A stretch of DNA of 64,000 nt, taken from positions 49,545 through 113,544 of the forward strand of contig VBDV01000111.1 of NCBI GenBank assembly GCA_005882765.1, in the 5' to 3' direction. The stretch's first letter is position 1. Every line of letters starts with the position of its first letter. Positions 3,765 to 62,140 of this stretch are shown here, piece after piece. A program made the position numbers and the translations under genes. The notes under the pieces were generated by a model. That model was not told where the DNA came from. It saw nothing but the letters and a program-made list of their open reading frames with translations, and did no database searches. The stretch comes from Chloroflexota bacterium (GTDB lineage Bacteria > Chloroflexota > Limnocylindria > P2-11E).

Positions 3765-4226
3765 GTGTCGCTGTTTGTTCTTGTGAAGTTTCTCCACGTT
3801 CTGCTTGCAATCATTGCGGTCGGATTCAACGCGACGTACGGCGTGTGGCTCGCGCGGGTTGCCCGCGAGCCGGTGCCCACGCAGTCCTTCGTGCTTCATG
3901 GCATCAAGCGACTCGACGACTGGTTTGCCAATCCCGCCTACGTGCTGCTCGCCGTGACTGGGGTGACGATGGTGTTCGTCGGCGAGCTGAGATTCACGAC
4001 GTTCTGGATCGCCGGCGGGATCGTGCTCTGGGCGATCGCGGTCGCGCTCGGCTTCTTCGTGTACACGCCGATGCTTCGTAACCAAATTCACGCGCTCGAG
4101 ACGGCCGGACCCGAGAGCGAAGACTACAGGCGCTACTCCGCGAACGCGCGCTTCCTCGGCATCCTGCTCGCCCTGATCGTTGTCGTGATCGTTTTTCTCA
4201 TGGTGACGAAGCCAGCGCTGTCGTAG
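3765..4226 (+). CDS. small integral membrane protein (DUF2269-like, 4 TM)
   Basis: 153 aa with four hydrophobic segments. No catalytic motif. Confidence 0.55.
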   Translation: MSLFVLVKFLHVLLAIIAVGFNATYGVWLARVAREPVPTQSFVLHGIKRLDDWFANPAYVLLAVTGVTMVFVGELRFTTFWIAGGIVLWAIAVALGFFVYTPMLRNQIHALETAGPESEDYRRYSANARFLGILLALIVVVIVFLMVTKPALS

Positions 4227-30443: not shown

Positions 30444-31511
30444 CTAGCGCAGACGCTCGCGCGGGACGACGATGCGCACCGTCGTTCCCTCCCCGGGTTT
30501 GCTTTGCACTTTGCACAGCCCTCCCAGAAAGGCCACTCGCTCTCGCATCCCAAGAAGTCCGAAGTGTCCTGGGCGCACGCCTGCTTCGCCCCACTGTTCT
30601 GTCTCGAAACCATGTCCGTCATCGCCTACGTCTATCTCGAGGGTCTCTTCATTTTTCAGCAGAGCCAACCGCACTTCGTGCGCCGCGGCGTGCTTCTTCA
30701 CGTTGTTCAGGGCTTCAACGGCCACGCGATAGAGCGTCGACTCCGCCTCTCGCGAGAGGGGACCGGGATCGTCGAGCGCTTCCTCGAGCGTCCAGCCGGC
30801 CTCGTCGGCCATCTCGCGTGCCGCAGCCGACAGCGCGGCCACCAGACCAAGGTCGTCGAGGGTGGCTGGTCGGACAGTTCCGAGGATCTCGCGCGTCTCG
30901 CGGATCGCGCGGCGGAGCAGCTCGGTCGCCTTTCCGACCTGGACGTTCTCCACGCCGGCGCTCTGGAGCTGTGCGTGGGCGGACACGAGGATCGGAGCGA
31001 GTCCGTCGTGCAGATCGCGCGCAAGGCGGCGCCGATTTTCTTCCTCTTGTGAGAGAAGCTGTCCGGTGAAGTGCTGAAGGTCTCCGTACAGCTCCATGCG
31101 TTCGATGGCGAACGCCGCCTGGTCGCCGAGGATGCGGAGAAAGGCGATCGCATCGTTGCCGGGGTGGCTCTGGCGGTTGACATTGAGGACGCCCTGCGTT
31201 TTTGCGGCGACGAGCAGCGGTATGCAGATCGCAAAGGGAACATCCTTTGTGTAGGGCGTTCCAAGCTCTGTCGACGCCGCACCTTCGATGATCAGCGGCT
31301 CGCGTCGTTCGAGCGCCTGCCACGAGATGGACGGCCCGACCGCGACACGCGTTCCGACGAGACGCCCGGGACGCGACGCGCGGACGATGAGCGCATCGCC
31401 CGCGGCGTCGACGGTCATGAGGGATGCCGACTCATAGGTGACCGCCTCGTGAGCCGCCTCGAGTACGAGGTCAAACAGCTCGTCGGGACTCGCGGCGTTC
31501 CCGATGCGCAC
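30444..31511 (-). CDS. cytoplasmic sensor histidine kinase (GAF + HisKA_3 + HATPase)
   Basis: GAF domain, then the LHDGLAP H-box and C-terminal N/G boxes. No TM. Confidence 0.85.
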   Translation of the reverse strand: MRIGNAASPDELFDLVLEAAHEAVTYESASLMTVDAAGDALIVRASRPGRLVGTRVAVGPSISWQALERREPLIIEGAASTELGTPYTKDVPFAICIPLLVAAKTQGVLNVNRQSHPGNDAIAFLRILGDQAAFAIERMELYGDLQHFTGQLLSQEEENRRRLARDLHDGLAPILVSAHAQLQSAGVENVQVGKATELLRRAIRETREILGTVRPATLDDLGLVAALSAAAREMADEAGWTLEEALDDPGPLSREAESTLYRVAVEALNNVKKHAAAHEVRLALLKNEETLEIDVGDDGHGFETEQWGEAGVRPGHFGLLGMRERVAFLGGLCKVQSKPGEGTTVRIVVPRERLR

Positions 31512-31549: not shown

Positions 31550-32203
31550 TCAGGTCGCTGTCGACGACTCGACGAGGCCGTTGCGCACCGCGTAGATCGC
31601 AGCCTGCGTGCGATCCGAGACGTTCAGCTTTTCGAGGATCGCCGCGACGTGACTCTTCACAGTCTCCGGCGATAGAACGAGCTTGTCCGCGATCTCGCGG
31701 TTGCTGAGGCCTTCGGCGACGAGTGCAAGGATCTCGCGTTCGCGCTTGGTGAGGCTGCGCGCCGCGGGCGAGGTCGTGGAGCCGGGCTTCATCTCGGAGA
31801 GCATTCCCTTGAGCATCTGCGATTCGATGAAGGCGCCGCCTGTCGCCACCTGGCGGATCGCGTCGATGAGGTCGTCCTTCGAAACGTCTTTAAGAAGGTA
31901 TCCCGCAGCGCCGGCCCGCACGGCCTCGCGCAGGTATGCCGGGTTGTCGTGCATCGTCACCATGATGACCGCGGTCCGCGACCGCTCTTCCTTGATACGC
32001 CGCGTCGCCTCGAGTCCATCCATGTCGGGCATGCGCACGTCCATAAGCACGACATCGGGCAGCTCCTTGCGAGCCGTCTCGATCGCCTCGCGCCCGGTCT
32101 TGGCCTCGCCCACGACGGTGAGGTCTTCGGCCTTGGCGAGCATGGACGCGACACCCTGCCGCACGAGCTCGTGGTCGTCGACGAGAAGCACACGGATCGT
32201 CAT
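31550..32203 (-). CDS. NarL/LuxR family response regulator
   Basis: VLLVDDH...VLMDVRMPDMDG receiver and an LTKREREIL...SPETVKSH HTH. Confidence 0.9.
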   Translation of the reverse strand: MTIRVLLVDDHELVRQGVASMLAKAEDLTVVGEAKTGREAIETARKELPDVVLMDVRMPDMDGLEATRRIKEERSRTAVIMVTMHDNPAYLREAVRAGAAGYLLKDVSKDDLIDAIRQVATGGAFIESQMLKGMLSEMKPGSTTSPAARSLTKREREILALVAEGLSNREIADKLVLSPETVKSHVAAILEKLNVSDRTQAAIYAVRNGLVESSTAT

Positions 32204-32224
32204 CGCCGTGATTCTAGGGGTCGA

Positions 32225-32686
32225 TCAGACGACGGCGGTCCAGATGAGATAGAGAAGCAGGCCCGCGAGCACAAGGAGGAGCACGCCGATCCCCCACAGA
32301 GCCAACGTGCCAGCCTCGGTCTGCACCGATCCTGTCAACAAGCGTTCTACAGCACGCACCAGGTCGTCCGACGGCGCGTCCTTTGCGACCCATCCCTGCG
32401 GCTTGTCGACAGACCGCTCCGCCGCGGCCGCCTCGGCCGCTCCGCCAGCGAGTATCAATGAGGAGACGCCAAGCTCGGCACGCCCATCCCGGCGAAGGAC
32501 CAGAGCATCGACCAGAGCGAGGTCTGCCGGCCAACTTCGGGCGAGGCTCACAGCCTCAGTGAGCTTGGCGGCGCGGCGAACCTCGTAGCGCCGTTCGAGC
32601 CGCAGGATCGTCTCGATCCCCGCTCCGACGCTCGGATGTGAGACGACCAGGAGGACCCTCGGTCGGTTGATGGCCGGACGATACAC
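32225..32686 (-). CDS. tail-anchored pseudo-receiver protein (degenerate REC domain + C-terminal TM helix)
   Basis: VLLVVSHP replaces the DD acidic pocket. LALVD, S and K positions are kept. C-terminal LALWGIGVLLLVLAGLLLYLIW is a TM helix. It has a paralog at 56593..57105. Confidence 0.6.
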   Translation of the reverse strand: MYRPAINRPRVLLVVSHPSVGAGIETILRLERRYEVRRAAKLTEAVSLARSWPADLALVDALVLRRDGRAELGVSSLILAGGAAEAAAAERSVDKPQGWVAKDAPSDDLVRAVERLLTGSVQTEAGTLALWGIGVLLLVLAGLLLYLIWTAVV

Positions 32687-32774
32687 CGTTGTTCGGTTCC
32701 GCTACATCGGGCATACGCCGTTCCTCCCCCTCCTGTCTGATGCCTTGTAACAGCCAAAAACCGACTCTTTCCTC

Positions 32775-40259: not shown

Positions 40260-40775
40260 TTGAAGGACGCCATCGTCATCCCAGTCAGTGCGCTCCGCCG
40301 CATCTTCGTGACGCTTCTCGTACTGATCGTCCTGATCCTGCTCGTGCTCGTTATCCGCACGCAGCTCTTCCGCGCGGGCGTGGCCTCGCTCTTCGCGCCC
40401 AGCGCCGCCGAGGTGATCGATCGGAACGCCTATCAGGCCGTCTTCCTCACGAACGGTGCGACGTATTTCGGAAAACTCCAGCCACAGGGCGACGACTGGT
40501 TTCTCCTCACCGACGTTTTTTACCTCTCCGCGTCCGATCAGACCAGTACCCAGCTCATCAAGCGGGGCAGCGAGGCGCAGGGTCCAAAAGAGCCGATGAT
40601 CATCTCGAAGGAGCAGGTCCTCTTCATCGAGAACCTGCGCGACGATGGTGACATCGTCACGCTGATCAAGAAATTCAAGTCCGGCCAGGTCCCTTCGGCC
40701 AGCCCGCCGCCGGCGACTGCCGCGCCGACGACCTCACGACCTAGCGCGACCCCGAGCGCGAGTGCGTCCCGCTGA
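40260..40775 (+). CDS. small N-terminally membrane-anchored protein, paralog 1 of a 3-gene tandem family
   Basis: TTG start. TM (LLVLIVLILLVLVI). Conserved core YQAVFLTNGATYFGKL...VFYL...IKRGSEAQGPKEPMIISKEQVLFIENL. Confidence 0.55.
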   Translation: MKDAIVIPVSALRRIFVTLLVLIVLILLVLVIRTQLFRAGVASLFAPSAAEVIDRNAYQAVFLTNGATYFGKLQPQGDDWFLLTDVFYLSASDQTSTQLIKRGSEAQGPKEPMIISKEQVLFIENLRDDGDIVTLIKKFKSGQVPSASPPPATAAPTTSRPSATPSASASR

Positions 40776-40861: not shown

Positions 40862-41203
40862 GTGTTCGCCGCCGCACTGTTCTTCACGCAGTGGTGGGAC
40901 TTCACCGTCCCGGCGCTCGGCCGCGCGCAATACCAGGCGGTGTTCCTCACGAACGGTCAGACGTACTTCGGTCGCTACTACGACCGGTTCGGGGCGTACG
41001 CGAAGATCGAGGACGTCTACTACCTGCAGCAAGGACAGGCCACCGACTCGGGTGGCACGACGGACACACGAATCATCCGGCGCGGCCACGAGCTGCACGA
41101 GCCGAGCTCGCGGATGCTGATCCCGAAGTCGGCGATCCTCTTCGTCGAGGATTTGACTGACTCGTCGCCGATCGCGCAGTTCATGCAGCGAGACGCGCGA
41201 TGA
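40862..41203 (+). CDS. paralog 2 of the tandem family
   Basis: YQAVFLTNGQTYFGRY...VYYL...IRRGHELHEPSSRMLIPKSAILFVEDL. The first canonical start is GTG 40862, and the N-terminus may begin upstream at a non-canonical start. Confidence 0.5.
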   Translation: MFAAALFFTQWWDFTVPALGRAQYQAVFLTNGQTYFGRYYDRFGAYAKIEDVYYLQQGQATDSGGTTDTRIIRRGHELHEPSSRMLIPKSAILFVEDLTDSSPIAQFMQRDAR

Positions 41204-42102
41204 GCCTCTATGACCCCGAGCGCGATCGAGTACGGATCGCCGGCCGATGGCTCCGATGGGGACTCGCCTGGGTCGGCATCCCTCTCGTGCTCGGTGTTTT
41301 TGTATCCGCAAACGTCGACGTTCGGTCCCTCCCGCTCTTCGGGCCTGAGCGAATGTCCGCGGTCCTGTTCCTCGACGGTCAGGCCTACTTCGGCCATCTT
41401 GATGACTCGGGTGAGAACGGCACGCTCGTGCTGAGGGATGTCTACTATTTCAAGAACAGCGAGGGCGGGGTGACTGGCGTGCCGGTGGGCCTGGTTCGTC
41501 GCGGAACGGAAGCCCATGAGCCCGCCGACGGTATGCGCATCAACCGCGATCGCATCCTCGCGATCGAGCGCGTGGGTCCTATATCGGCCGTGGCGCAAGC
41601 GATCCAGGTGGAACGCGAGCTCATTCACGCTCCGCCGGGAAACGTGTCGCTCAACCGGACTGCGGTCGCGGGCGCTCCGGCATTGGCGGCCCAGCGGGTC
41701 GCCGCGGAGCACGACATCGCGCGGGCGTGGACCGCGGCGGTCGACCAGCTGCGCAAGCTCAACGATCTCGTTCTTCCAGTGACGAAAGCGGAGGCGGACC
41801 AGATCACCGCAAAGGCGATCGCGGACCTGCGAACCGTCCGCCAAAACGCGCTCGCTGCGCTTGCCGCGCAGGTCGGGATGTCCGCCGCGGAAGCGGATGC
41901 CTACGTCCGCGCGACCGATCCCCTCCTTGAGGGACAAAGCTTTTCCACTGACGCGGGGGTCCTCCTCGCCCCAGATGTCGACGCGATCGTCACACGGGCG
42001 ACGCAGCTCTATACGCAGGTCGGTGATGCGGCCGCGAAGCAGCTCACACAGGCGAAGACCGTCTCGCCGACGCCGACACCCACACCTTCGCCAAAGCCCT
42101 GA
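41200..42102 (+). CDS. paralog 3 of the tandem family (longer, with a C-terminal extension)
   Basis: ATGA overlap with paralog 2. TM, then AVLFLDGQAYFGHL...VYYF...VRRGTEAHEPADGMRINRDRILAIERV, plus a ~180 aa Ala-rich tail. Confidence 0.6.
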   Translation: MSLYDPERDRVRIAGRWLRWGLAWVGIPLVLGVFVSANVDVRSLPLFGPERMSAVLFLDGQAYFGHLDDSGENGTLVLRDVYYFKNSEGGVTGVPVGLVRRGTEAHEPADGMRINRDRILAIERVGPISAVAQAIQVERELIHAPPGNVSLNRTAVAGAPALAAQRVAAEHDIARAWTAAVDQLRKLNDLVLPVTKAEADQITAKAIADLRTVRQNALAALAAQVGMSAAEADAYVRATDPLLEGQSFSTDAGVLLAPDVDAIVTRATQLYTQVGDAAAKQLTQAKTVSPTPTPTPSPKP

Positions 42103-42123: not shown

Positions 42124-42789
42124 CTAGCTGGCGGCGTTTTCTGATGCCGCGCCAGTGAGATCGATGAGCCTCGGGGCCGCGTCGATGTCGCTTTGGAACG
42201 CGAGCGCGATGGCCTGCGCGCGGCTGTGCACGCCGAGCTTGAGAAGGATGTGCTCGATGTGCTTCTCGACTGTCTTCGGCGTGATCACCAGATCACGCGC
42301 GATCTCCGCAGGATCGAGACCGCACGCGAGTAGCCGCAGGATCTCCAGCTCGCGCCGGGTGAGCCCGGCGACGACCGTCCGCGGGAGCGGGCGCGCGCGT
42401 CGCGCGAGGCGTTGTACGCGGGCGAGGAGCTCGTCCAGCACGAATGGCTTGATCATGTAGTCGTCGGCACCAAGCAACATGCCGGCAACCCGATCCATCG
42501 ACTCCTTGCGCTCGCCTGAAATCAAGATGATCCCAATGCTGTCGCCGTAGTCATCGCGTAGCCGCCGGCAGAGCTGATATCCCGAGATGTCCGGGAGATG
42601 CACGTCGAGCAGCACGACATCGGAGCTTTCACGCTGGATGAGGTACAGCGTCTCGCGCGCATCGGACGCGCGTCGCGTCATGAAGCCGTGCTCGGCGAGT
42701 GTCGTCGCGATGAGCTCGCAGATAACGGGGTCGTCGTCAACGACGAGCACTCGACCACGCGGCCGCCTGAGCGCTGACATAACGAGAAG
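42124..42789 (-). CDS. LuxR-type response regulator
   Basis: VLVVDDDP...VLLDVHLPDISG receiver and an LTRRELEILRLLACGL HTH. The start is taken at an internal Met, but the track ORF extends to 42903. Confidence 0.75.
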   Translation of the reverse strand, partial: LLVMSALRRPRGRVLVVDDDPVICELIATTLAEHGFMTRRASDARETLYLIQRESSDVVLLDVHLPDISGYQLCRRLRDDYGDSIGIILISGERKESMDRVAGMLLGADDYMIKPFVLDELLARVQRLARRARPLPRTVVAGLTRRELEILRLLACGLDPAEIARDLVITPKTVEKHIEHILLKLGVHSRAQAIALAFQSDIDAAPRLIDLTGAASENAAS

Positions 42790-43022
42790 GGCCACGCTTG
42801 CAAGAACCGCACCCAGGCGTGCTTCACAAGAAATATTGAGCGCAAGGACCGTATTTGATCGCATCGCTTGCCTTCGGCGTGCCCCGTACGACGTGTTCCC
42901 CATGAGGTCGTGCGGTGAAAAGCCGGTCGACGCCGCTCACTGCCTCGTGCGCGCGTTCGTAGCGTCCACGCGGTCGGCCCGCTAGGCCGACGAATTCTCT
43001 GCAAGGAGGCAGATCGGACGCA

Positions 43023-51922: not shown

Positions 51923-52606
51923 TTAGCGGATCGGATCCTTCTCGAGCAGACCGCGGTTGTGCACGTAGAGGGCAGCCTGCGTGCGGTCGGTGAGCTCGAG
52001 CTTGCTGAAGATGTTCGAGATATGCGTTTTTACGGTGCGCTCGCTGATCCCGAGCGTCGCCGCGATCTCCTTGTTGGCTCTGCCGCTCGCCACGAGCTTC
52101 AACACCTCGCGCTCGCGTGCGGTGAGATCGCTGTAACCCTCGTCGTCGCCGGTGGGGCGGTCGCCGGCGCGCAACCGACCGAACTCATCGAGCACGCGCT
52201 TGGCGACCGACGGGTAGATGAGTGAGAAACCGTCGGCCACGGTGCGGATCGCGTTGGTGAGCTGGCTGCCGGTGACCTCCTTCAGGAGGTATCCCGACGC
52301 GCCCGCGCGAATCGAGCTGAACACCAGCTCGTCCTCGTCGTAGTTCGTGAGGACGATCACGCGCGACGACGGTACGGAGTTGCGCACGCGCCGCGTGGCC
52401 GTGACCCCGTCCCAGTCGCCCATCTTTATGTCCATGAGGATCACGTCGGGCAGAAGCTCCTGCGCCACGGCGAGCGCCTCGTGTCCGTCGCCGGCCTCGC
52501 CGACGACCTCTATCTCGGGCTCGGTCTCGAGTATTGACCGCAGGCCGCTGCGGACGAGGGCGTGATCGTCGGCGATGAGGACGCGGATCTTCCGAATCTC
52601 GCTCAT
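51923..52606 (-). CDS. NarL/LuxR family response regulator
   Basis: VLIADDH...ILMDIKMGDWDG receiver and an LTAREREVL...SERTVKTH HTH. Confidence 0.9.
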   Translation of the reverse strand: MSEIRKIRVLIADDHALVRSGLRSILETEPEIEVVGEAGDGHEALAVAQELLPDVILMDIKMGDWDGVTATRRVRNSVPSSRVIVLTNYDEDELVFSSIRAGASGYLLKEVTGSQLTNAIRTVADGFSLIYPSVAKRVLDEFGRLRAGDRPTGDDEGYSDLTAREREVLKLVASGRANKEIAATLGISERTVKTHISNIFSKLELTDRTQAALYVHNRGLLEKDPIR

Positions 52607-54756
52607 CGCCCGAAGAGCCTTCCGAGGAAGCTTGCCTTTTCGGTCCGCTCGAGATCCTCGATCGCGCCGCGCTGATCGGTGTCCTCGACGGTGTCGGTCC
52701 AGCCGGGCGGGGCGCCGTCGACGGTGATCCGGTAGGGGATGGTCGCGCGGACGATCGTGCCTCGGCCGGGCTCGCTGCGGACGACGAGCTGTCCGCCCAC
52801 ACCTTCGGCCCGCTCGCGCATTCCGACGATGCCGTAATGGCCCCGCTCTTCGGCGGTGTTGAGCTCGTTCGACTCGAATCCCTTGCCATCGTCCTCGATC
52901 GTCGCGACGACCTGCTCGTCGTCGTATCTCAAAATCACCTTGGCGTTAGACGCGCCCGAGTGCTGCCCGACGTTGCGCAGACCCTCGCCGATGATCCGAA
53001 TGACGGCGCGCTCGACGAAGGGCTCGAGCGGACGCTCCACGCCGGTCTCCTCGAAGTCCACCGCGACTCCGCTCTGCCGGCGGAGGTCGTCCGCGAGGCG
53101 CGCGACGGTCACCGGCAGGTTCAGGCCGCCGGCCTCTTCGGTCTGCCGCAATGCCGCCATGTACTGCCGCACATCGGAGAGCGTCGCCCGCGCGTCCCGC
53201 GCGGCTTTCGCGAGCTGGGGCCCGAGCGCCGCTGGATCGCGATCGAGCGCGCGCTGGCAGCCCTCGAGCGCAAGGACGACGCCGGTGAGCTCCTGGGCGA
53301 CACCGTCATGCAGCTCCTGTGAGATGCGCCGCCGTTCGTTCGACGCGGTGCGCTGCACGAGGTCGGTCGATGCCGATTTCTGCAGCATGCCGGAGAGATA
53401 CTCGCCGAGCGTCGAGACGAAGTCGGCCTCCGCCGACGTATAGGGGGTGGTTGCGCGACCCAGGACGAGGACGCCGAGGACCACGCCGTTCTGCGATCCG
53501 CCGATCGGCGCCAGCAGGAAGTGCGTCGATGACGGCGCGGCCCAGTCCGGACGGTCTTCGGCCATGCCGTACTGCGCCGTCGCGGTGCGGCGCTCGCGAA
53601 GCACCTGCGCGAGCACCGTGTCCGTGCCCGACGTGGAAATGTCCGCGGGGGTGATGTCGCCGTAGCCGGTCGCGGCACGGAGATGGAGGTGATGCTCCTC
53701 CGCGGCCCATACGCCGACCGCATCGTGACGCAGGTTGTCGGCGAGCATCGCGACGGCGCTCTCGAGATCGTTGTGCGGGTCGATGCCGAGTGTCGCGAAG
53801 CGTGAGAGCTCGTAGAGCACGAGCGCCTGCCGGCGATCCTCCTCGGCTCGCTGGAACTCTTCGGCTGTCAGGAGGGCGGAGGCGATCTCCGCCGCGGCCT
53901 GCGTGAGCGAGTCGACCTGTACCTGGCTGTAGCGCTCTTGCTGGGCGCGGTGCTTCACGCTGACGACGCCGAGCGTGCGGCCGTTCGAGCGAAGCGGAGC
54001 GATCATGGCCTCGCTCGCGGTCGGGTCGGACCCGCCCTGCACCTGGCCGGAGAGCAGCATCGACCGGCCGGTCTGGGCGACCGTTCCGGAGATGCCTTCA
54101 CCGATCCGCTTCCGGTCGAGCTTCGCGGCATCCGGGAGTCCGCGCGAGCTTCGCACCGAGAGCTCGCCCTGCGCGTCCGCGAGCATGATCGAGACGCCAT
54201 CCGCGCCGAAGACGTCCGCGAGCTGTGCCGTCGCGCGCTCGAGCAATTGGTCGGGATCGCGCTCCTTGCGGATGATCGCCTGGAGGTCACGCGATGCTTT
54301 GAGCTTCGCTTCGGCGTCCTGCCCCTGCCTCTGCGCGCGCCAGAGCGCGTTCGCCTCCGCGAGCTCGAGGCCGATGAGATCGCCGACACGACCGAGACTC
54401 GCGAGATCCTCGGCCGAGAAGGCCCGACCGGCGAGCATCGCGGCGAGACCCCCGACGACCTGATCCTTCCAGATGACCGGAGACACCGCGAGGGTGTCGG
54501 CGAGGCGGCCGTCTGAGAGCGGGAGCGCCACCCCACTCGTCGCCTGTTCAGTGGAGCGTTCGCTCATCGCCTTCGCGAGCATCGCCGCGGGCATTCCCTG
54601 GCTCCACTTTGTCTCGGTGGGGAGGTTGTGGGCGACGTAGGTCGCGTAGCCCTCACCTTTCAGGTTCAGAATTACGGCGATCGCGTCCGCCCGCGCGAGC
54701 TTCGCGAGGTACGCCATGCGCGCGTTCCAGAAGTCGGCGTCGAGTCGGAGGGTCAC
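52603..54756 (-). CDS. cytoplasmic multi-GAF sensor histidine kinase (HisKA_3/HATPase)
   Basis: 717 aa. Three GAF-like regions, an LHDGVAQ H-box and a HATPase C-terminus. ATGA overlap with the downstream RR. Confidence 0.85.
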   Translation of the reverse strand: MTLRLDADFWNARMAYLAKLARADAIAVILNLKGEGYATYVAHNLPTETKWSQGMPAAMLAKAMSERSTEQATSGVALPLSDGRLADTLAVSPVIWKDQVVGGLAAMLAGRAFSAEDLASLGRVGDLIGLELAEANALWRAQRQGQDAEAKLKASRDLQAIIRKERDPDQLLERATAQLADVFGADGVSIMLADAQGELSVRSSRGLPDAAKLDRKRIGEGISGTVAQTGRSMLLSGQVQGGSDPTASEAMIAPLRSNGRTLGVVSVKHRAQQERYSQVQVDSLTQAAAEIASALLTAEEFQRAEEDRRQALVLYELSRFATLGIDPHNDLESAVAMLADNLRHDAVGVWAAEEHHLHLRAATGYGDITPADISTSGTDTVLAQVLRERRTATAQYGMAEDRPDWAAPSSTHFLLAPIGGSQNGVVLGVLVLGRATTPYTSAEADFVSTLGEYLSGMLQKSASTDLVQRTASNERRRISQELHDGVAQELTGVVLALEGCQRALDRDPAALGPQLAKAARDARATLSDVRQYMAALRQTEEAGGLNLPVTVARLADDLRRQSGVAVDFEETGVERPLEPFVERAVIRIIGEGLRNVGQHSGASNAKVILRYDDEQVVATIEDDGKGFESNELNTAEERGHYGIVGMRERAEGVGGQLVVRSEPGRGTIVRATIPYRITVDGAPPGWTDTVEDTDQRGAIEDLERTEKASFLGRLFGR

Positions 54757-54765
54757 GGAGAGGCC

Positions 54766-56706
54766 CTACGCCACGCCGGCGCCGGCCTCGCCCTCGATGC
54801 GGAGCTCCAGGGAGGTGCCGCCACTGCGCTGTAAGGCGAAGCGCGGCTGTTCTAGGGTCGCGATCGCGGACCAGAGCTCGTCCACCAGCATGGGTACACG
54901 GAGTCCGACCGCGAGCGTCGCGACGCCTCCCCTGAAGTCACGCACGTAGAGCGTACGGACCTGCGCCAGCGACTGAATGCGCCGCTCGATGTCCACGAGC
55001 CGGGCGAACGACGGTACGGGCGAGAGCATGAGCACAATGTTGCTGGTCGGAGCCGCCGGCTCCTCCCTCTCGAGAGTGACTTGCTCCGGTTCCGTTACCC
55101 CTTGGGCCGGTTCGCGCTCCACCACGGTCAATTCGGGGGGCGCCGGAGAGGTCTCGACGGCCTTTTCTGTCGGTCTGGAGAAGACCTCATCCTCCTCCAC
55201 GACTGGCGGCGGCTGCGTCGCTCTGGACGCCAGAGCGGCCCGCGCCGCCTCCTGGGCAGCACGCGCGGCCGTCTCGGCGACGCGCGCGGCCTCGGCGATA
55301 CGGAGGGCCTCGACGGTGGCGGCGCGCCGCACCTCCTCGGCCGCAAGCCGGGCCCCCTCGGCGCGGCGCGCCTCTTCCTCGCGGCGCTGCTGGTCGCGAC
55401 GCTCCTCTTCTTGCCTCCACTGGGTCGCGCGCCGCTGCTCCTCCTCGCGCCATCTCGCGGCTCGCTGTTCCTCGTCCTCACGCCGTTGCTGCTCGAGACG
55501 CACCGCGTCCGCGACGCGGGCTTCGTCGGCGGCTCGGCGCGCTTCCTCGGCCGCACGCGCCGCGGTCGTGGCGCGCTCCACCTCCTGAGCCGCGCGCTCC
55601 GCGTCGGCGGCGCGGTCGGCCCCGGCCGCGCGGGCGGCCTCCTGTGCGGCGCGCATCGCCTCTTCTGCGGCGCGCACGGCCTCCGCGGCCCGCTGCGTCT
55701 CGCCGGCGCGATCGGCCTCCGCGGCGCGGGCCGCCTCCTGTGCGGCGCGCATCGCTTCCTGCGCGGCACGAGCGGCCTCAGCCGCGCGCTGGGCTTCGAC
55801 CGACCGATCCGCTTCGGCCTGCTGGTGCGCGAGTCGCTGCGCTTCCGCGAGCTTCCGCGCCTCGTCGGCGGCGCGAGCCGCCTCTTCGGTCGCGCGCTGC
55901 GCCTGCTCCGCGACGCGAGCCGCTTCTGCGGCGCGCTCCGCCTCCGCGGCGCGCTGCGCCTCGAGAGCGCGACGCGCTTCCTCCTGGGCCGAGCGCGCCT
56001 CGTCCTGTGCAACGCGCGCCTGCTCCTGCGCGGTCTTCGCCTGCGCCGCGGCGGCGTTGGCCTCGCGGGCCGCGTCCGCGACCGTTCCCGCTTGACGACG
56101 GATGTCCTCGAGGAGCTCGGTGAAGACACCGCGCAGCGCGTCGGCCGCGAGCGCGCGCGACTCGGCGGTGGTCTCCTCGGGCGCCTTCTCAGGCGCGGCA
56201 GCCGATTCGCGGCGTGGTCCGCGGAGCGCGGAAAAGCCGCTCCGCCGGTTCGACGCGATCTCGTCGACGAGGCCGTCGCGCTCTTCACGGAGCCGCTCGA
56301 TCTCTTTGATCAGCATCTTCCGCTCATCTCGGGCCTGCTCGAGGATCTGCTGCGCAGCGTTCTCGGCTCGGGCGCGGATCTCGTGAGCGGCTCGCAGCGC
56401 ACCGGACAAGGCGTCGCGCACGGTGGCGTCGAATTCTTCGTACACCGCGACACGCTTGCGCGCCGCATCAAGCTCCGATTCGAGCGAGCCGACGCGCTTG
56501 GTGAGCTCGCTGACACGATCGGAGAGCGCGCCGATGATGTCTCCGGACGCGCCTAGACCTCTGGGCCCCTCGGACACGCGGTCGCCCTCCAAATGCTCGC
56601 TTCTCTGCCCACTTCCCCGCGTGTGGCGCAGAGCGTATACGACTGCGGCCGGGAAGGGCATCATCCGCGCATCACGCGGCCAAAGGTCTTGCTCGTCGTG
56701 GGGCAC
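54766..56706 (-). CDS. DivIVA-domain protein with a ~300-aa Ala/Glu/Arg coiled-coil and a C-terminal ~85-aa globular domain
   Basis: N-terminal DivIVA-like segment (IIGALSDRVSELTKRVGSLESELD...). Long AEAARAAQEA repeats. Start ambiguous, as the first Met overlaps the divergent gene. Confidence 0.6.
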   Translation of the reverse strand: MPHDEQDLWPRDARMMPFPAAVVYALRHTRGSGQRSEHLEGDRVSEGPRGLGASGDIIGALSDRVSELTKRVGSLESELDAARKRVAVYEEFDATVRDALSGALRAAHEIRARAENAAQQILEQARDERKMLIKEIERLREERDGLVDEIASNRRSGFSALRGPRRESAAAPEKAPEETTAESRALAADALRGVFTELLEDIRRQAGTVADAAREANAAAAQAKTAQEQARVAQDEARSAQEEARRALEAQRAAEAERAAEAARVAEQAQRATEEAARAADEARKLAEAQRLAHQQAEADRSVEAQRAAEAARAAQEAMRAAQEAARAAEADRAGETQRAAEAVRAAEEAMRAAQEAARAAGADRAADAERAAQEVERATTAARAAEEARRAADEARVADAVRLEQQRREDEEQRAARWREEEQRRATQWRQEEERRDQQRREEEARRAEGARLAAEEVRRAATVEALRIAEAARVAETAARAAQEAARAALASRATQPPPVVEEDEVFSRPTEKAVETSPAPPELTVVEREPAQGVTEPEQVTLEREEPAAPTSNIVLMLSPVPSFARLVDIERRIQSLAQVRTLYVRDFRGGVATLAVGLRVPMLVDELWSAIATLEQPRFALQRSGGTSLELRIEGEAGAGVA

Positions 56707-57105
56707 CCGACCATCGGCGCAGCGCTCGAGGCGCTGCTCCGGATAGAGGATCGATACGAGGTGAGGCGCGCACAGTCGTTAGAACAGGTCACATCCAGCT
56801 TGGACGGCTGGGTCGCCGACCTCGCTCTCGTCGATGGCGTGCTGGTTCAGAGGGGAAGGACAGAGGTTCTACCAATGCCAACCATCGTGCTTTCGGGCAA
56901 TCCGCGCGACGGCCGCAGACTGTCCGGACACTTCGTCCGGGGTCAGGGCTGGCTCCGGAAGGACGCGACCGCCGAGGAGATCCGGGTCGCGATCGATCGG
57001 GCGCTCGTACCTGCAGCGCGCCGGTGGTCGGTGCTCGTCGTCATGGCGCTCCTCGTGCTGGTGGTGATCGTGATCGTGATCGCCCGGTACCTGCTACAGG
57101 TCTAG
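56593..57105 (+). CDS. tail-anchored pseudo-receiver protein, paralog of 32225..32686
   Basis: VLLVVGHPTIGAALEALLRIEDRYEVRRA versus VLLVVSHPSVGAGIETILRLERRYEVRRA. C-terminal TM (VLVVMALLVLVVIVIVIARYLL). Start uncertain. Confidence 0.55.
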   Translation: MLASLPTSPRVAQSVYDCGREGHHPRITRPKVLLVVGHPTIGAALEALLRIEDRYEVRRAQSLEQVTSSLDGWVADLALVDGVLVQRGRTEVLPMPTIVLSGNPRDGRRLSGHFVRGQGWLRKDATAEEIRVAIDRALVPAARRWSVLVVMALLVLVVIVIVIARYLLQV

Positions 57106-57113
57106 GGGTCGAC

Positions 57114-57686
57114 ATGGCCAAGGACGACAAGAAGAAAAAGAAACCGAGTGAGGACGTCGTCGATCTGGCGGCGCGGATCGGCGCGCGTCAGTCGTCGCCC
57201 AACACGACCCCTCCCGACGTCGCACCACCGCAGGCACCGCCACCGCCTCCGCCCACACGCCTCGACGGACCTATCCCTTCGGCTCCGAAGCCGCGCCTCG
57301 TACCGGCCAAAGAGGATCGGCTCCAGGGCGCGATGATCCAGAAGGCCCTGGTCGAGGAGGATCAAAAGCCCGAGCCCGCGATCCCATCCCCGCGCGCGGC
57401 GCCCGGACCGGGCGAGATCGATCTCGTCGTCACGCCGCTCCCCACACCGGACGACTGGCACCGCTTCGAGCTCGCGCTCCGCAAGGTGCGCGGGGTGGGG
57501 CAGCTTCGGACCGAGTACTACCGGCACGGCGTCCTGAAGGTGAGAGTGAGCTACCAGGGAGCGGACCGCCTTGCCGCCGTGCTCCGCGCCGGCGTTCCCG
57601 GATATCGCGTCCGGGTCATCGGCGAGGACCGCGCGACGTTGCAGATCCTGGTCACATCCGAGGGTGACGAGCGCCGGCCCGGCTGA
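57114..57686 (+). CDS. Lys-rich/Pro-rich hypothetical protein with a C-terminal domain shared with the DivIVA-like protein
   Basis: N-terminal MAKDDKKKKKP and PPQAPPPPPP. C-terminus IDLVVTPLPTPDDWHRFELALRKVRGVGQLRTEYY...VRVSY aligns with the DivIVA-like protein's C-terminus. Confidence 0.5.
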   Translation: MAKDDKKKKKPSEDVVDLAARIGARQSSPNTTPPDVAPPQAPPPPPPTRLDGPIPSAPKPRLVPAKEDRLQGAMIQKALVEEDQKPEPAIPSPRAAPGPGEIDLVVTPLPTPDDWHRFELALRKVRGVGQLRTEYYRHGVLKVRVSYQGADRLAAVLRAGVPGYRVRVIGEDRATLQILVTSEGDERRPG

Positions 57687-59341: not shown

Positions 59342-62140
59342 ATGGCAATCGCTGACATCGCGGAAGTCTCTGTTGAGCGCGCGGAGCCGAAAGGCCTTCG
59401 GATCGACCGCCGTTTCACTCGCGAGGGCACCCACCCGTACGACGAGATCGAGTGGGAGCGCCGCGACTCGGCAATCCCGGGTGAGACCGGCAACGTCTTC
59501 GAGCAGAAGGCCGTCGAGGTCCCGAAGTTCTGGTCGCAGACGGCCACGAACGTCGTCGCGTCGAAATACTTCCGCGGCAAGCTCGGCTCGCCCGAGCGTG
59601 AGTCAAGCGTTAAGCAGATGGTCGATCGCGTCGTCGACACCATCGCCCGCGCCGGTTTCGAGGGCGGCTATTTCGCGAGCGCTTCAGATCGCGACGCCTT
59701 CGCCGACGAGCTCAAGTACCTCATGGTCCACCAGTACGCCTCGTTCAACTCGCCGGTGTGGTTCAACATCGGAGTGGAGGGAGTTCCCCAACAGGCGAGC
59801 GCGTGCTTCATCCTCTCGGTCGAGGACGACATGCACTCCATCCTCGACTGGTTCCGTGACGAGGGGATCATTTTCAAGGGCGGGTCCGGCTCGGGCGTGA
59901 ACGTCTCACGGATCCGGTCGCAGAAGGAGAACCTCTCCGGCGGCGGCTTCGCCTCCGGTCCGGTGTCGTTCATGCGCGGTGCCGACTCGGTCGCCGGCTC
60001 GATCAAGTCGGGGGGCACCACGAGGCGCGCCGCGAAGATGGTCATCCTCGACGCCGACCACCCTGATCTCCACGAGTTCATCTGGTGCAAGGCCAAAGAA
60101 GAAAAGAAGGCGTGGGCGCTCGGCGAGGCGGGCTACGACATGAGCCTGAACGGGGAAGCCTGGCAGTCGATCCAGTTCCAGAACGCGAACAACTCCGTGC
60201 GCGTGACCGACGAGTTCATGAAGAAAGCTCAGACCGACGAGGACTGGAGTCTCACCGCGCGGATCGGCGGGAACGTCCTCGAGACGCTGAAGGCGCGTGC
60301 GCTTTTGAGGGAGATCGCGGAAGCCGCATGGCAATGCGGGGATCCGGGCATGCAGTTCGACACGACGATCAACGACTGGCACACCTCTCCGGCGAGTGGA
60401 CGGATCAACGGATCGAACCCGTGCAGCGAGTACATGAGCATCGACGACTCGGCGTGCAATCTCGCGTCGCTCAATCTGCTTCGCTTCGTGCACAGCGACG
60501 GCGAGTTCGACGTCGAACGCTTCCGGGCCGCCGTCGAGATCGTCTTCACGGCGCAGGAGATCCTCGTCGGCCACTCCGACTACCCGACCGCGAAGATCGC
60601 CGAGAACGCGCGCTCCCACCGTCAGCTCGGTCTGGGGTACGCAAACCTCGGCGCGCTCCTCATGCAGCGCGGGTTGCCGTACGACTCGAACCAGGGCCGT
60701 GCCTATGCCGCCGCGGTGACCGCACTCATGACCGGTGCGGCGTACTCGCAGTCCGGTCGGATCGCGGAAGCAGTGGGGCCGTACGAGGCGTACCCGAAGA
60801 ACAAGGACGCGCACGACCGGGTCATCCAGATGCACCGACTGCACGCATACCGCATCCGGGACGAGCTCCTCCCCGCGAGTCTTCTTTCGGCGGCGCGTCA
60901 GGCCTGGGACGACGCGGTCGCGTTCGGGCGGCCCGCGGGATATCGCAACGCGCAGGCATCGGTCCTCGCGCCGACGGGAACGATCAGCTTCATGATGGAT
61001 TGCGACACGACCGGCGTTGAGCCGGACATCGCGCTCGTGAAGTACAAGAAGCTCGTCGGTGGCGGGATGCTGAAGCTCGTCAACGGGAGCGTCCCCACGG
61101 CGCTACGGCGCCTTGGGTACAGCGACACCGAGTCCGGCGCCATCACCACCTACATCGAGCAGTACGGCACCATCGAAGGTGCCCCCGGCATCAAGGACGA
61201 GGATCTCCCGGTCTTCGACTGCGCGTTCAAGCCGCAGAACGGCGAGCGCACGATCCACCACATGGGCCACATCAAGATGATGGGTGCGGTCCAGCCATTC
61301 ATCTCCGGTGCGATCTCGAAGACCGTGAACCTTCCCGAGACCGCGACCATCGACGATGTCACCGAGGCGTACGTCGAGGCGTGGAAGCACGGGCTCAAGG
61401 CCATCGCCGTCTATCGCGACGGAAGCAAGAAGGTCCAGCCCGTCAACACGACCAACAAAGAGAGCAACGCCAAGGCCGTCGAAACGGTCGTCGAGCGCAT
61501 CGTCGAGGTCACGCGGCCGCAGCGTCGCCGCCTCGCCGACACGCGGGCGTCGCTCACGCACAAGTTCTCGATCGAGGGTCACGAGGGATACATCACCGTC
61601 GGGCTGTTCGAGGACAACACTCCGGGTGAGCTCTTCGTCACCATGGCGAAGGAAGGTTCGACCCTGTCGGGCATGATGGACGCGTTCGCGACGAGCGTGT
61701 CGCTGCTCTTCCAGTACGGCGTTCCGCTCTCGCACCTCGTCGAGAAGTTCGGGCATATGCGTTTCGAGCCCGCCGGTTGGACCGGCAATCCCGAGATCGG
61801 TTTCGCGAAGTCGATCGTCGACTACGTCTTCCGCTGGTTGGGGAACCGTTTCCTATCCGAGCCCGACCGCGCGGCGCTCGGGCTTGTCCGCACGACCGAG
61901 GTCGCCGACGCGACGTCACAGCTCGAGCTTCTGAATCGCGTTGTACAGCTCGCGACACCCGAAGTGCCGGCCGCGAACGGCAACGGGCACGCCGTCGCCC
62001 CCGTCCCCGACGCCCCCGGCTACCGACGACTCAATTCCACACCCGACGCGCCCCCCTGCCCGCGCTGCGGCTGGCTCACCGTTCGAAGCGGCACCTGCCA
62101 CAAGTGCGAGAACTGTGGAGAGACGACCGGGTGTAGCTGA
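59342..62140 (+). CDS. nrdJ: class II adenosylcobalamin-dependent ribonucleotide reductase
   Basis: 932 aa. NPCSEY active-site Cys loop, a B12-dependent RNR core and a C-terminal CxxC...CxxC zinc ribbon. Confidence 0.95.
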   Translation: MAIADIAEVSVERAEPKGLRIDRRFTREGTHPYDEIEWERRDSAIPGETGNVFEQKAVEVPKFWSQTATNVVASKYFRGKLGSPERESSVKQMVDRVVDTIARAGFEGGYFASASDRDAFADELKYLMVHQYASFNSPVWFNIGVEGVPQQASACFILSVEDDMHSILDWFRDEGIIFKGGSGSGVNVSRIRSQKENLSGGGFASGPVSFMRGADSVAGSIKSGGTTRRAAKMVILDADHPDLHEFIWCKAKEEKKAWALGEAGYDMSLNGEAWQSIQFQNANNSVRVTDEFMKKAQTDEDWSLTARIGGNVLETLKARALLREIAEAAWQCGDPGMQFDTTINDWHTSPASGRINGSNPCSEYMSIDDSACNLASLNLLRFVHSDGEFDVERFRAAVEIVFTAQEILVGHSDYPTAKIAENARSHRQLGLGYANLGALLMQRGLPYDSNQGRAYAAAVTALMTGAAYSQSGRIAEAVGPYEAYPKNKDAHDRVIQMHRLHAYRIRDELLPASLLSAARQAWDDAVAFGRPAGYRNAQASVLAPTGTISFMMDCDTTGVEPDIALVKYKKLVGGGMLKLVNGSVPTALRRLGYSDTESGAITTYIEQYGTIEGAPGIKDEDLPVFDCAFKPQNGERTIHHMGHIKMMGAVQPFISGAISKTVNLPETATIDDVTEAYVEAWKHGLKAIAVYRDGSKKVQPVNTTNKESNAKAVETVVERIVEVTRPQRRRLADTRASLTHKFSIEGHEGYITVGLFEDNTPGELFVTMAKEGSTLSGMMDAFATSVSLLFQYGVPLSHLVEKFGHMRFEPAGWTGNPEIGFAKSIVDYVFRWLGNRFLSEPDRAALGLVRTTEVADATSQLELLNRVVQLATPEVPAANGNGHAVAPVPDAPGYRRLNSTPDAPPCPRCGWLTVRSGTCHKCENCGETTGCS

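Follow-up and report, generated by a model that had tools for sequence, protein, structure and literature searches.

A family of degenerate receiver proteins with a predicted C-terminal membrane anchor in NarL-type loci of Limnocylindria

Receivers that stand alone, with no fused output domain, can act through binding. DivK of Caulobacter, a true receiver that is phosphorylated and soluble, is a single-domain protein that regulates kinases and other partners in this manner. Tail-anchored membrane proteins have also been described in bacteria, for example in Streptomyces coelicolor. The subject of this report is a gene, called A, whose product appears to be a degenerate receiver (REC) domain followed by a single C-terminal transmembrane (TM) helix, together with its paralog, called B. 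Both genes are found in a stretch of 64,000 nucleotides (hereafter the window) from a Chloroflexota bacterium of the Limnocylindria (assembly GCA_005882765.1, contig VBDV01000111.1, positions 49,545 to 113,544).

Degenerate receivers are not rare. Several percent of the receiver domains in bacteria are pseudo-receivers (PsRs), and a 2025 review called their mechanisms 'a mystery' (PMC12632262). WhiI is a pseudo-receiver that acts by heterodimerising with the NarL-family protein BldM (PMC4125116). CmrT is a pseudo-receiver protein that is encoded in the cmrRST operon with a normal histidine kinase/response regulator pair (PMC12632262). Aspartate-less receivers (ALRs) are, by definition, those in which the phospho-acceptor Asp is missing (Maule et al. 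2015, PMC4395418). The A and B proteins resemble each of these systems in part, and several lines of evidence suggest that they belong to a family with its own architecture.

Sequence profiles and structure models indicate that A and B are divergent CheY-like receiver domains. No curated Pfam or NCBIfam family scores above threshold for either protein, and none of the minor pseudo-receiver Pfam families is matched. The general receiver model (PF00072, Response_reg) scores 16.0 bits for A and 13.9 bits for B against a gathering cut-off of 30.2, and it aligns only over its first half. Thus, the family would be missed by model-based censuses. When a 20-sequence family alignment was compared by hhalign with 12 canonical receivers, the probability was 99% (E 3e-18), and the family profile also matches receivers in the PDB at E-values down to 1e-7, including PrrA, a LuxR-family receiver, Mycobacterium tuberculosis NarL, DevR and DesR. 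The AlphaFold2 (AF2) model of A has a mean predicted local distance difference test (pLDDT) score of 80 and runs from β1-α1 to β5-α5, followed by a linker of low confidence (residues 120-127) and a C-terminal helix (125-152). The top Foldseek matches of this model are receiver domains (E ~1e-6, TM-score 0.62-0.76 normalised to the target), among them NarL-family DesR and M. tuberculosis NarL as well as a LuxR-family receiver. The receiver-like fold proposed for A and B in an earlier note on this DNA is therefore borne out by profile comparison, by the predicted topology and by structural matches.

The family descends from a NarL-type receiver. This origin follows from the 28% identity of A to the REC domain of its neighbouring NarL-type regulator (RR_A, see below), and from an 'HP' just behind the DD position together with a 'KD' at the Lys position behind β5, in accordance with the NarL-family 'DDHP...KD' pattern. 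However, neither A nor B has a match to a GerE or other helix-turn-helix (HTH) output domain, and after residue 118 there is only a short linker and the TM helix. Many members carry JGI labels such as 'DNA-binding NarL/FixJ', 'OmpR family' or 'AcrR family' regulators. These labels are wrong because the family has no DNA-binding domain.

The pocket in which receivers are phosphorylated is degenerate throughout the family. Residues were counted in 49 genomic family sequences, and 20 distant representatives were tallied separately. On alignment of A with CheY, V15/S16 occupy the places of the metal-binding DD pair D12/D13, D60 that of the phospho-acceptor D57, A80 (S in B) that of the β4 Thr/Ser T87, W99 that of the aromatic switch Y106, and K102 that of the β5 Lys K109. 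In 49/49 genomic sequences the first position of the pair (DD1) is V or I, and the second (DD2) is occupied by G, A, S or F. No genomic sequence is acidic at either place, nor is any distant representative (0/20). The earlier note had seen this replacement in the motif VLLVV[SG]HP, and it had also taken the motif 'LALVD' to be retained; the aspartate of the latter is D60, which is present in 49/49 sequences. We also looked for an intact pocket at a shifted position. Positions 14-18, which were tabulated around the pocket, hold no acidic residue in any member, and a shifted acidic pocket is thereby rejected.

In true receivers each of the two DD positions is acidic in 100% of cases, and the DD2 residue binds the metal directly (Bourret et al. 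2025, PMC12632262). With the pair replaced by V plus S, G or A, the catalytic Mg2+ is presumably no longer bound. By the criteria of the same authors A is a pseudo-receiver, since both DD residues are missing and A-type members lack the T residue as well. It is not an aspartate-less receiver, since the phospho-acceptor Asp is kept in A, in B and in the other genomic sequences. From these residues we infer that A and B are not phosphorylated.

Other positions are strongly conserved. H17-P18, D60, W99 and D103 are invariant (49/49), and K102 is kept in 48/49. At the end of β2, R38 is found in every genomic sequence (49/49), as is R or K at position 37 (49/49). The T position is S in 33 sequences, A in 15 and T in 1, with Ala in A-type and Ser in B-type and single-copy members. 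The distant representatives are less uniform, wherein Glu replaces the phospho-acceptor Asp in 2/20 and the β5 Lys is absent in 5/20. The most divergent members lack R37, R38 and K102.

The second defining feature is the hydrophobic C-terminus. The best 19-residue Kyte-Doolittle (KD) mean is 2.74 for A and 3.53 for B, in both cases in frame and at the very end of the protein. Each protein has a single segment with a KD mean of at least 1.8, comprising residues 124-153 of A and the last 33 residues of B. The AF2 model predicts the A tail as a helix with pLDDT 90-94 (residues 125-152), and the hydrophobic helix is kept in 49/49 relatives. The N-terminus of A runs directly into β1 and has no signal sequence. 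Judged by sequence and model, A and B qualify formally as tail-anchored membrane proteins. REC domains are cytoplasmic and a signal peptide is absent, so the predicted topology is N-in, C-out, with the receiver facing the cytoplasm.

Both parts of the protein are under selection. Pairwise Nei-Gojobori comparison of 12 A orthologs gives a median dN/dS of 0.21, and the separate values of 0.19 for the receiver and 0.28 for the tail indicate purifying selection on each. Thus, A is a real gene. A pseudogene or chance open reading frame (ORF) is made unlikely by the dN/dS of ~0.2 and by hundreds of full-length orthologs. The C-terminal TM helix that the earlier note read in both proteins is likewise in frame, strongly hydrophobic, universal among the relatives counted and maintained by selection.

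Both ORFs were found where the earlier note had placed them, and they bracket ~24 kb as it had described. Their paralogy is confirmed by BLASTP of A against B (43% identity over 117 aa, E 9e-29). The B gene has an alternative GTG start at 56623, which would yield a protein of 160 aa. A tblastn search of the whole window with the A and B proteins revealed no third copy. One other ORF of equal length (3765..4226, 153 aa) was considered as a third paralog and rejected, as it codes for an unrelated polytopic membrane protein. The structural reading of two paralogs with a REC fold, a lost Mg2+/acidic pocket, a retained Asp and a tail anchor was upheld in every test that we ran.

The pseudo-receiver family is small and confined to Ca. 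Limnocylindria and relatives. Searches of a collection of 5.8 billion proteins yielded 293 relatives for A and 235 for B. Among the best 120 matches of each search, nearly all come from soil metagenomes and Chloroflexota metagenome-assembled genomes (MAGs), most are full length, A relatives are mostly 153 aa, and none carries a precomputed Pfam domain. An exhaustive family-profile hidden Markov model search of 1.84 billion cluster representatives gave only 100 matches with E <= 1e-3. The family accounts for about 60 of them, many being fragments, and ordinary receivers start at ~E 1e-5. A search of one genome per species in GTDB gave 47 loci, and almost all of these bear the label Ca. Limnocylindria or Chloroflexota. 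Four loci (L008, L033, L036 and L053) and one protein (P0136) are on contigs in MAGs named Bathyarchaeia, Udaeobacter, Acidiferrales and Verrucomicrobiae, and these occurrences are most likely mis-binned contigs, that is, binning contamination.

Both A and B are present in 13 genomes, whereas a distant clade carries one copy in the context of A. A neighbour-joining tree has three clades, which correspond to the two types of the genomes with A and B and to the single-copy situation in the A context. The search of representatives also uncovered a 154-aa soluble protein (P0303) with the sequence 'VLLVEGPPHVGALIEAVLREDERYEVRRAQ', which has one acidic residue left at DD1 and no TM tail. This protein is possibly an intermediate in the evolution of the pseudo-receiver family from NarL-type receivers.

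Table 1. Features of the A and B loci, with positions in the window
Feature	Coordinates	Strand	Basis or remark
Soluble GAF-HisKA_3-HATPase kinase (HK_A), third gene of the A operon, near subclade only	30444..31511	-	Domain models
NarL/FixJ-type regulator (RR_A), REC plus GerE HTH, 21 bp downstream of A	31550..32203	-	Domain models
Pseudo-receiver A, 153 aa, GTG start; degenerate REC plus C-terminal TM helix	32225..32686	-	ORF, homologs, dN/dS, AF2, Foldseek, hhalign
C-terminal hydrophobic helix of A (residues 125-153), predicted tail anchor with conserved Y-L-x-W aromatic belt	32228..32314	-	KD, AF2
REC-like (βα)5 domain of A (residues 9-118)	32333..32662	-	AF2, hhalign, residue comparison with CheY
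Intergenic region of 88 bp separating the divergent A and giant genes, well conserved in near relatives	32687..32774		Alignment
Giant membrane protein, 2485 aa	32775..40232	+	Domain models, hydropathy
NarL-type regulator (RR_B)	51923..52606	-	Domain models
Soluble multi-GAF HisKA_3 kinase (HK_B)	52603..54756	-	Domain models, hydropathy
DivIVA-like coiled-coil protein, divergent from B, heads the HK_B/RR_B operon	54766..56577	-	Start GTG 56577
Pseudo-receiver B, paralog of A, similarly degenerate pocket, S at the T87 position	56593..57105	+	170 aa from ATG 56593
TM tail of B	57025-57102	+	Coding positions
189-aa protein downstream of B	57117..57686	+	Described as co-transcribed with B; class-III aminotransferase next

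The A gene is the first of three co-oriented genes (Table 1), with RR_A after 21 bp and HK_A after a further 38 bp. No terminator-like site was found on their strand between A, RR_A and HK_A. The A and RR_A genes (32203..32686) share a reading frame and are separated by one TGA and seven codons, such that read-through would produce a fusion protein. This shared frame is probably coincidental.

On the other side, A is divergent from the gene for a giant protein, in agreement with the earlier note. The MshEN domain, a domain type that binds cyclic diguanosine monophosphate (c-di-GMP), is one component of this protein. The others are a canonical REC, which is cytoplasmic, one TM helix (290-314), an extracytoplasmic FecR domain, ~1100 residues of collagen-like G-X-Y repeats and a C-terminus that is β-rich and Gly-rich. 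The giant protein is itself an unusual 'membrane response regulator'. The intergenic region between A and the giant gene yielded no sigma-70-like promoter and no inverted repeat, and its alignment shows no clear operator. Both GAF kinases (HK_A and HK_B) are soluble, in line with the cytoplasmic kinases of the earlier note, with no segment of KD >= 1.8 in either.

The gene neighbourhood was surveyed by mapping window proteins by tblastn onto 54 fetched loci. The order giant, pseudo-receiver, RR_A, with the giant gene divergent, is found in 29/29 loci that extend far enough. In the near clade (13 genomes), RR_A is followed by HK_A and then by a Trm112-like gene. The pseudo-receiver is still located between the giant gene and RR_A in the distant clade (14 genomes), where the giant protein is ~45% and RR_A 82-85% identical to the window proteins. 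However, no histidine kinase was found within ~8 kb in the fetched flanks of these 14 distant genomes. At one locus (L047), genes for a flippase-like protein and an Mrp/ParA-type ATPase occupy the place where the kinase would be.

Additional genes near the giant gene are worth recording. Directly after it are three ORFs (40260..40775, 40862..41203 and 41200..42102, all on the + strand) that share the motif 'FLTNGxTYFG(K/R/H)' and look like paralogs, two of which have an N-terminal hydrophobic segment. These are followed by a third regulator of the cluster (42124..42903, - strand), whose receiver fits OmpR/PhoB-type models best and which carries a LuxR/NarL-type HTH. Its ORF starts with a hydrophobic stretch, which may lie upstream of the true start.

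The B locus is organised differently. The earlier note had each pseudo-receiver adjoining a NarL-type kinase/regulator pair. This description is accurate for A, which is 21 bp from RR_A and co-oriented with it, but it does not hold for B, whose pair is encoded on the other strand and lies beyond the 1.8-kb DivIVA-like gene. The order on the B side is B, the 189-aa protein, a class-III aminotransferase and a ribonucleotide reductase, and opposite B runs an operon of the DivIVA-like gene, HK_B, RR_B and a GT2 glycosyltransferase. The start of the DivIVA-like gene was set at GTG 56577 because the ORF as listed, to 56706, would overlap B, and this leaves a gap of only 15-45 bp to B. The middle of the DivIVA-like ORF is long, repetitive and rich in Ala, Glu and Arg. 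A promoter and terminator scan and an inverted-repeat search of the intergenic region between B and the DivIVA-like gene gave nothing usable.

In the 189-aa protein, the N-terminal half is disordered and rich in Lys and Pro, and the C-terminal domain is modelled with confidence by AF2 as ferredoxin-like (β-α-β-β-α-β-β). A Foldseek search with this model gave no significant PDB match. Across the divergent promoter, the protein bears a marginal similarity to the C-terminus of the DivIVA-like protein (E 0.007). The class II-like ribonucleotide reductase gene (59342..62140, + strand) is uninterrupted and codes for 932 aa, and several relatives are ~1330 aa. Its counterparts at two loci (L005 and L007) carry a LAGLIDADG intein, and at five others (L032, L037, L039, L041 and L046) the tblastn match is in two pieces ~1.2 kb apart.

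Some remote relatives resemble B in their context. The divergent arrangement with a DivIVA-like gene recurs at a distant locus (L058). The gene for P0280 runs divergently from genes for a DivIVA-like protein and a GAF protein, and downstream of P0269 come a small ORF and a class-III aminotransferase. The two most divergent members (P0282 and P0294) are located between a methyltransferase and a 1061-aa protein that is weakly similar to a YfhO-like membrane protein of the window (E 0.001).

The rate and pattern of sequence change offer clues to function. Identity was measured to the window proteins in near and in distant relatives. It is 77-93% (near) and ~42% (distant) for the pseudo-receiver REC, 98-100% and 80-84% for the RR_A receiver, and 93-99% and 68-71% for the receiver of the giant protein. 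The pseudo-receiver evolves far faster than the two neighbouring canonical REC domains, as would be expected of a domain released from catalytic constraint.

The α1 helix and the β5-α5 loop of receivers form the classical docking surface for the dimerisation and histidine phosphotransfer (DHp) domain of kinases, as in the Spo0F-Spo0B, HK853-RR468 and DesK-DesR structures. In the pseudo-receiver family, weighted column entropy per secondary-structure element is lowest in the β5-α5 loop (0.45 bits), followed by β5 (0.66), α1 (0.83) and β2 (0.83), and is higher in α5 (1.75), α4 (1.80), α3 (1.94) and α2 (2.03), of which the last three can vary freely. Exposed residues P18, G21, E25 and R29 form a conserved stripe on α1. 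Members of the NarL/FixJ family dimerise through α1-α5 (PMC12632262).

The present analysis shows the fold, the residue losses, the anchor, the purifying selection and the conserved gene neighbourhood. Since the sole 'output' of the protein is a membrane anchor, its function must go through the receiver fold itself. We tentatively favour a model, to which we give a little less than an even chance, in which A and B are tail-anchored, non-phosphorylated pseudo-receiver adaptors that are localised at the membrane and bind a partner from the NarL-type pathway. A cytoplasmic REC would be held at the inner face of the membrane by the single C-terminal helix. The adaptor surface would be the conserved α1 and β5-α5 region, which NarL-type receivers use both for α1-α5 dimerisation and for kinase docking. 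The partner would most likely be the receiver of RR_A, and possibly also the cytoplasmic REC of the giant protein. We favour such REC-REC pairing because these two neighbours are invariant whereas the kinase is not, and WhiI and CmrT serve as precedents. Binding might then tether or sequester the partner at the membrane, beside the envelope structure that the locus builds. Both the choice of partner and the direction of any effect are conjectural parts of this proposal.

Several observations weigh against it. The operon of B has no regulator, and the most divergent members have no two-component genes in view, so that one partner model may be unfit for the whole family. The α5 helix is only moderately conserved, so that kinase docking would explain the conserved surface no less well than α1-α5 dimerisation. 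The equivalents of D57 and K109 are retained, and some phospho-chemistry may be possible. Lastly, all family sequences are derived from metagenomes of an uncultured class, and both expression and localisation are predictions.

The most serious rival takes up the idea of the earlier note that the protein could be a decoy, scaffold or connector for the GAF kinases. The pseudo-receiver would dock on the HisKA_3 DHp helices of these soluble enzymes. There it could be a decoy that competes with the regulator, or a membrane scaffold that recruits the kinase and so, for example, favours transfer of the phosphate to the REC that the giant protein holds at the membrane. We take this rival seriously because the conserved surface fits docking and because both kinases, which have no TM segments, are soluble. 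The best-conserved exposed elements (α1 and the β5-α5 loop) make up the docking surface, and A carries V, G and T at the α1 positions DD2+4, +7 and +10, compared with V, G and S in the receivers of RR_A, RR_B and the giant protein. This resemblance may, however, reflect mere NarL-type ancestry. Genomic context is similarly divided. HK_A is part of the A operon in 13 genomes, and B-type copies are linked to the operon of the DivIVA-like protein and the GAF kinase even in a distant lineage, yet the 14 distant genomes without a nearby kinase keep both the regulator and the giant protein, which weakens the case for the kinase as the conserved partner. On balance, we consider kinase docking plausible but rather unlikely, even though it is the closest competitor of the adaptor model. 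Retention of D60 and K102, and of a Ser at the T position of B-type and single-copy members, also leads us to consider a receiver that is still phosphorylatable, perhaps as a membrane-bound phosphate sink. This seems very unlikely, because both metal-binding acidic residues, which all true receivers have, are gone in every member. In addition, A-type members have Ala at the T position, the distant representatives include the Asp and Lys losses noted above, and the high evolutionary rate fits lost catalysis.

A further alternative is that the pocket has been rebuilt as a basic patch (R37, R38, H17 and K102) that binds an anionic ligand or lipid, in which case the protein would be a sensor and not a passive adaptor. 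Candidate ligands include a phosphorylated partner, a nucleotide such as c-di-GMP, and phospholipid head groups. All four patch positions are invariant or nearly so in the genomic sequences, and the REC sheet order 2-1-3-4-5 implies that the C-terminal end of β2 adjoins the former DD loop. The neighbouring giant protein has an MshEN domain, and the degenerate receivers VpsT and BcsE REC* bind c-di-GMP (PMC7840130). Our confidence in the patch as a ligand site is nevertheless low and we regard it as distinctly improbable, given that no known c-di-GMP motif was recognised and that three of its residues (R37, R38 and K102) are missing from the most divergent members. A broader form of this idea is also doubtful, albeit slightly less so: the family might represent a previously unrecognised class of two-component accessory proteins, membrane-tethered pseudo-receivers whose basic site reads the phosphorylation of a partner receiver, an anionic second messenger or a lipid. 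If true, a pseudo-receiver of this kind would couple a soluble NarL pathway both to the giant collagen-like surface fibre that bears REC and MshEN domains and to DivIVA-linked organisation of the envelope. The hydrophobic tail might instead be a cleavable sorting signal, similar to exosortase/PEP-CTERM systems, or an oligomerisation helix. B-type tails end in the basic sequence 'LRLRG', and one distant member is near a gene with a weak exosortase match. At a cut-off of E <= 0.01 the match could not be reproduced, and A-type tails lack basic residues and show no basic cluster. The proteins have neither an N-terminal signal peptide nor a conserved motif before the helix, and REC is a cytoplasmic fold. 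We judge that either role for the tail is highly improbable.

The family is a clear-cut natural case, and the likely partners of the pseudo-receiver are encoded alongside A, namely the NarL regulator, the soluble GAF kinase and the REC-bearing membrane protein. Thus, the question of whether the kinase or a regulator is bound can be addressed directly with recombinant proteins. The family also marks a conserved envelope and surface-fibre locus in an abundant, uncultured class of soil bacteria.

Among the described systems, WhiI offers a close parallel (PMC4125116). It shares with A a REC fold without catalytic residues, a NarL-type ancestry and a proposed REC-REC contact with a NarL-family partner. 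However, WhiI and most pseudo-receivers that have been studied are soluble and have a DNA-binding output, whereas the A family has a TM helix and no output domain. CmrT, of the cmrRST operon of Clostridioides difficile (PMC12632262, PMC12548384), resembles A in that a pseudo-receiver shares an operon with an ordinary kinase/regulator pair. The two differ in that CmrT is a DNA-binding protein of the OmpR family, whereas A is the first gene of a NarL/HisKA_3 system and its product is membrane-anchored and has no DNA-binding domain. Aspartate-less receivers and the A family are both degenerate, but the A family keeps the Asp in 49/49 sequences and loses the DD pair instead. DivK is similar to A and B as a stand-alone REC with an interaction output and a link to genes for the envelope or polarity (here the DivIVA-like neighbour), but A and B lack the metal site and would be tethered to the membrane. 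Like tail-anchored proteins, A and B have no N-terminal signal and one C-terminal TM helix with 0-4 residues beyond it. Full-text literature searches and reviews of degenerate receivers gave no description of a tail- or membrane-anchored receiver architecture. Pseudo-receivers as a kind are already known, and what is new here is a lineage-specific, membrane-tethered and output-less pseudo-receiver family in NarL-type loci of Limnocylindria.

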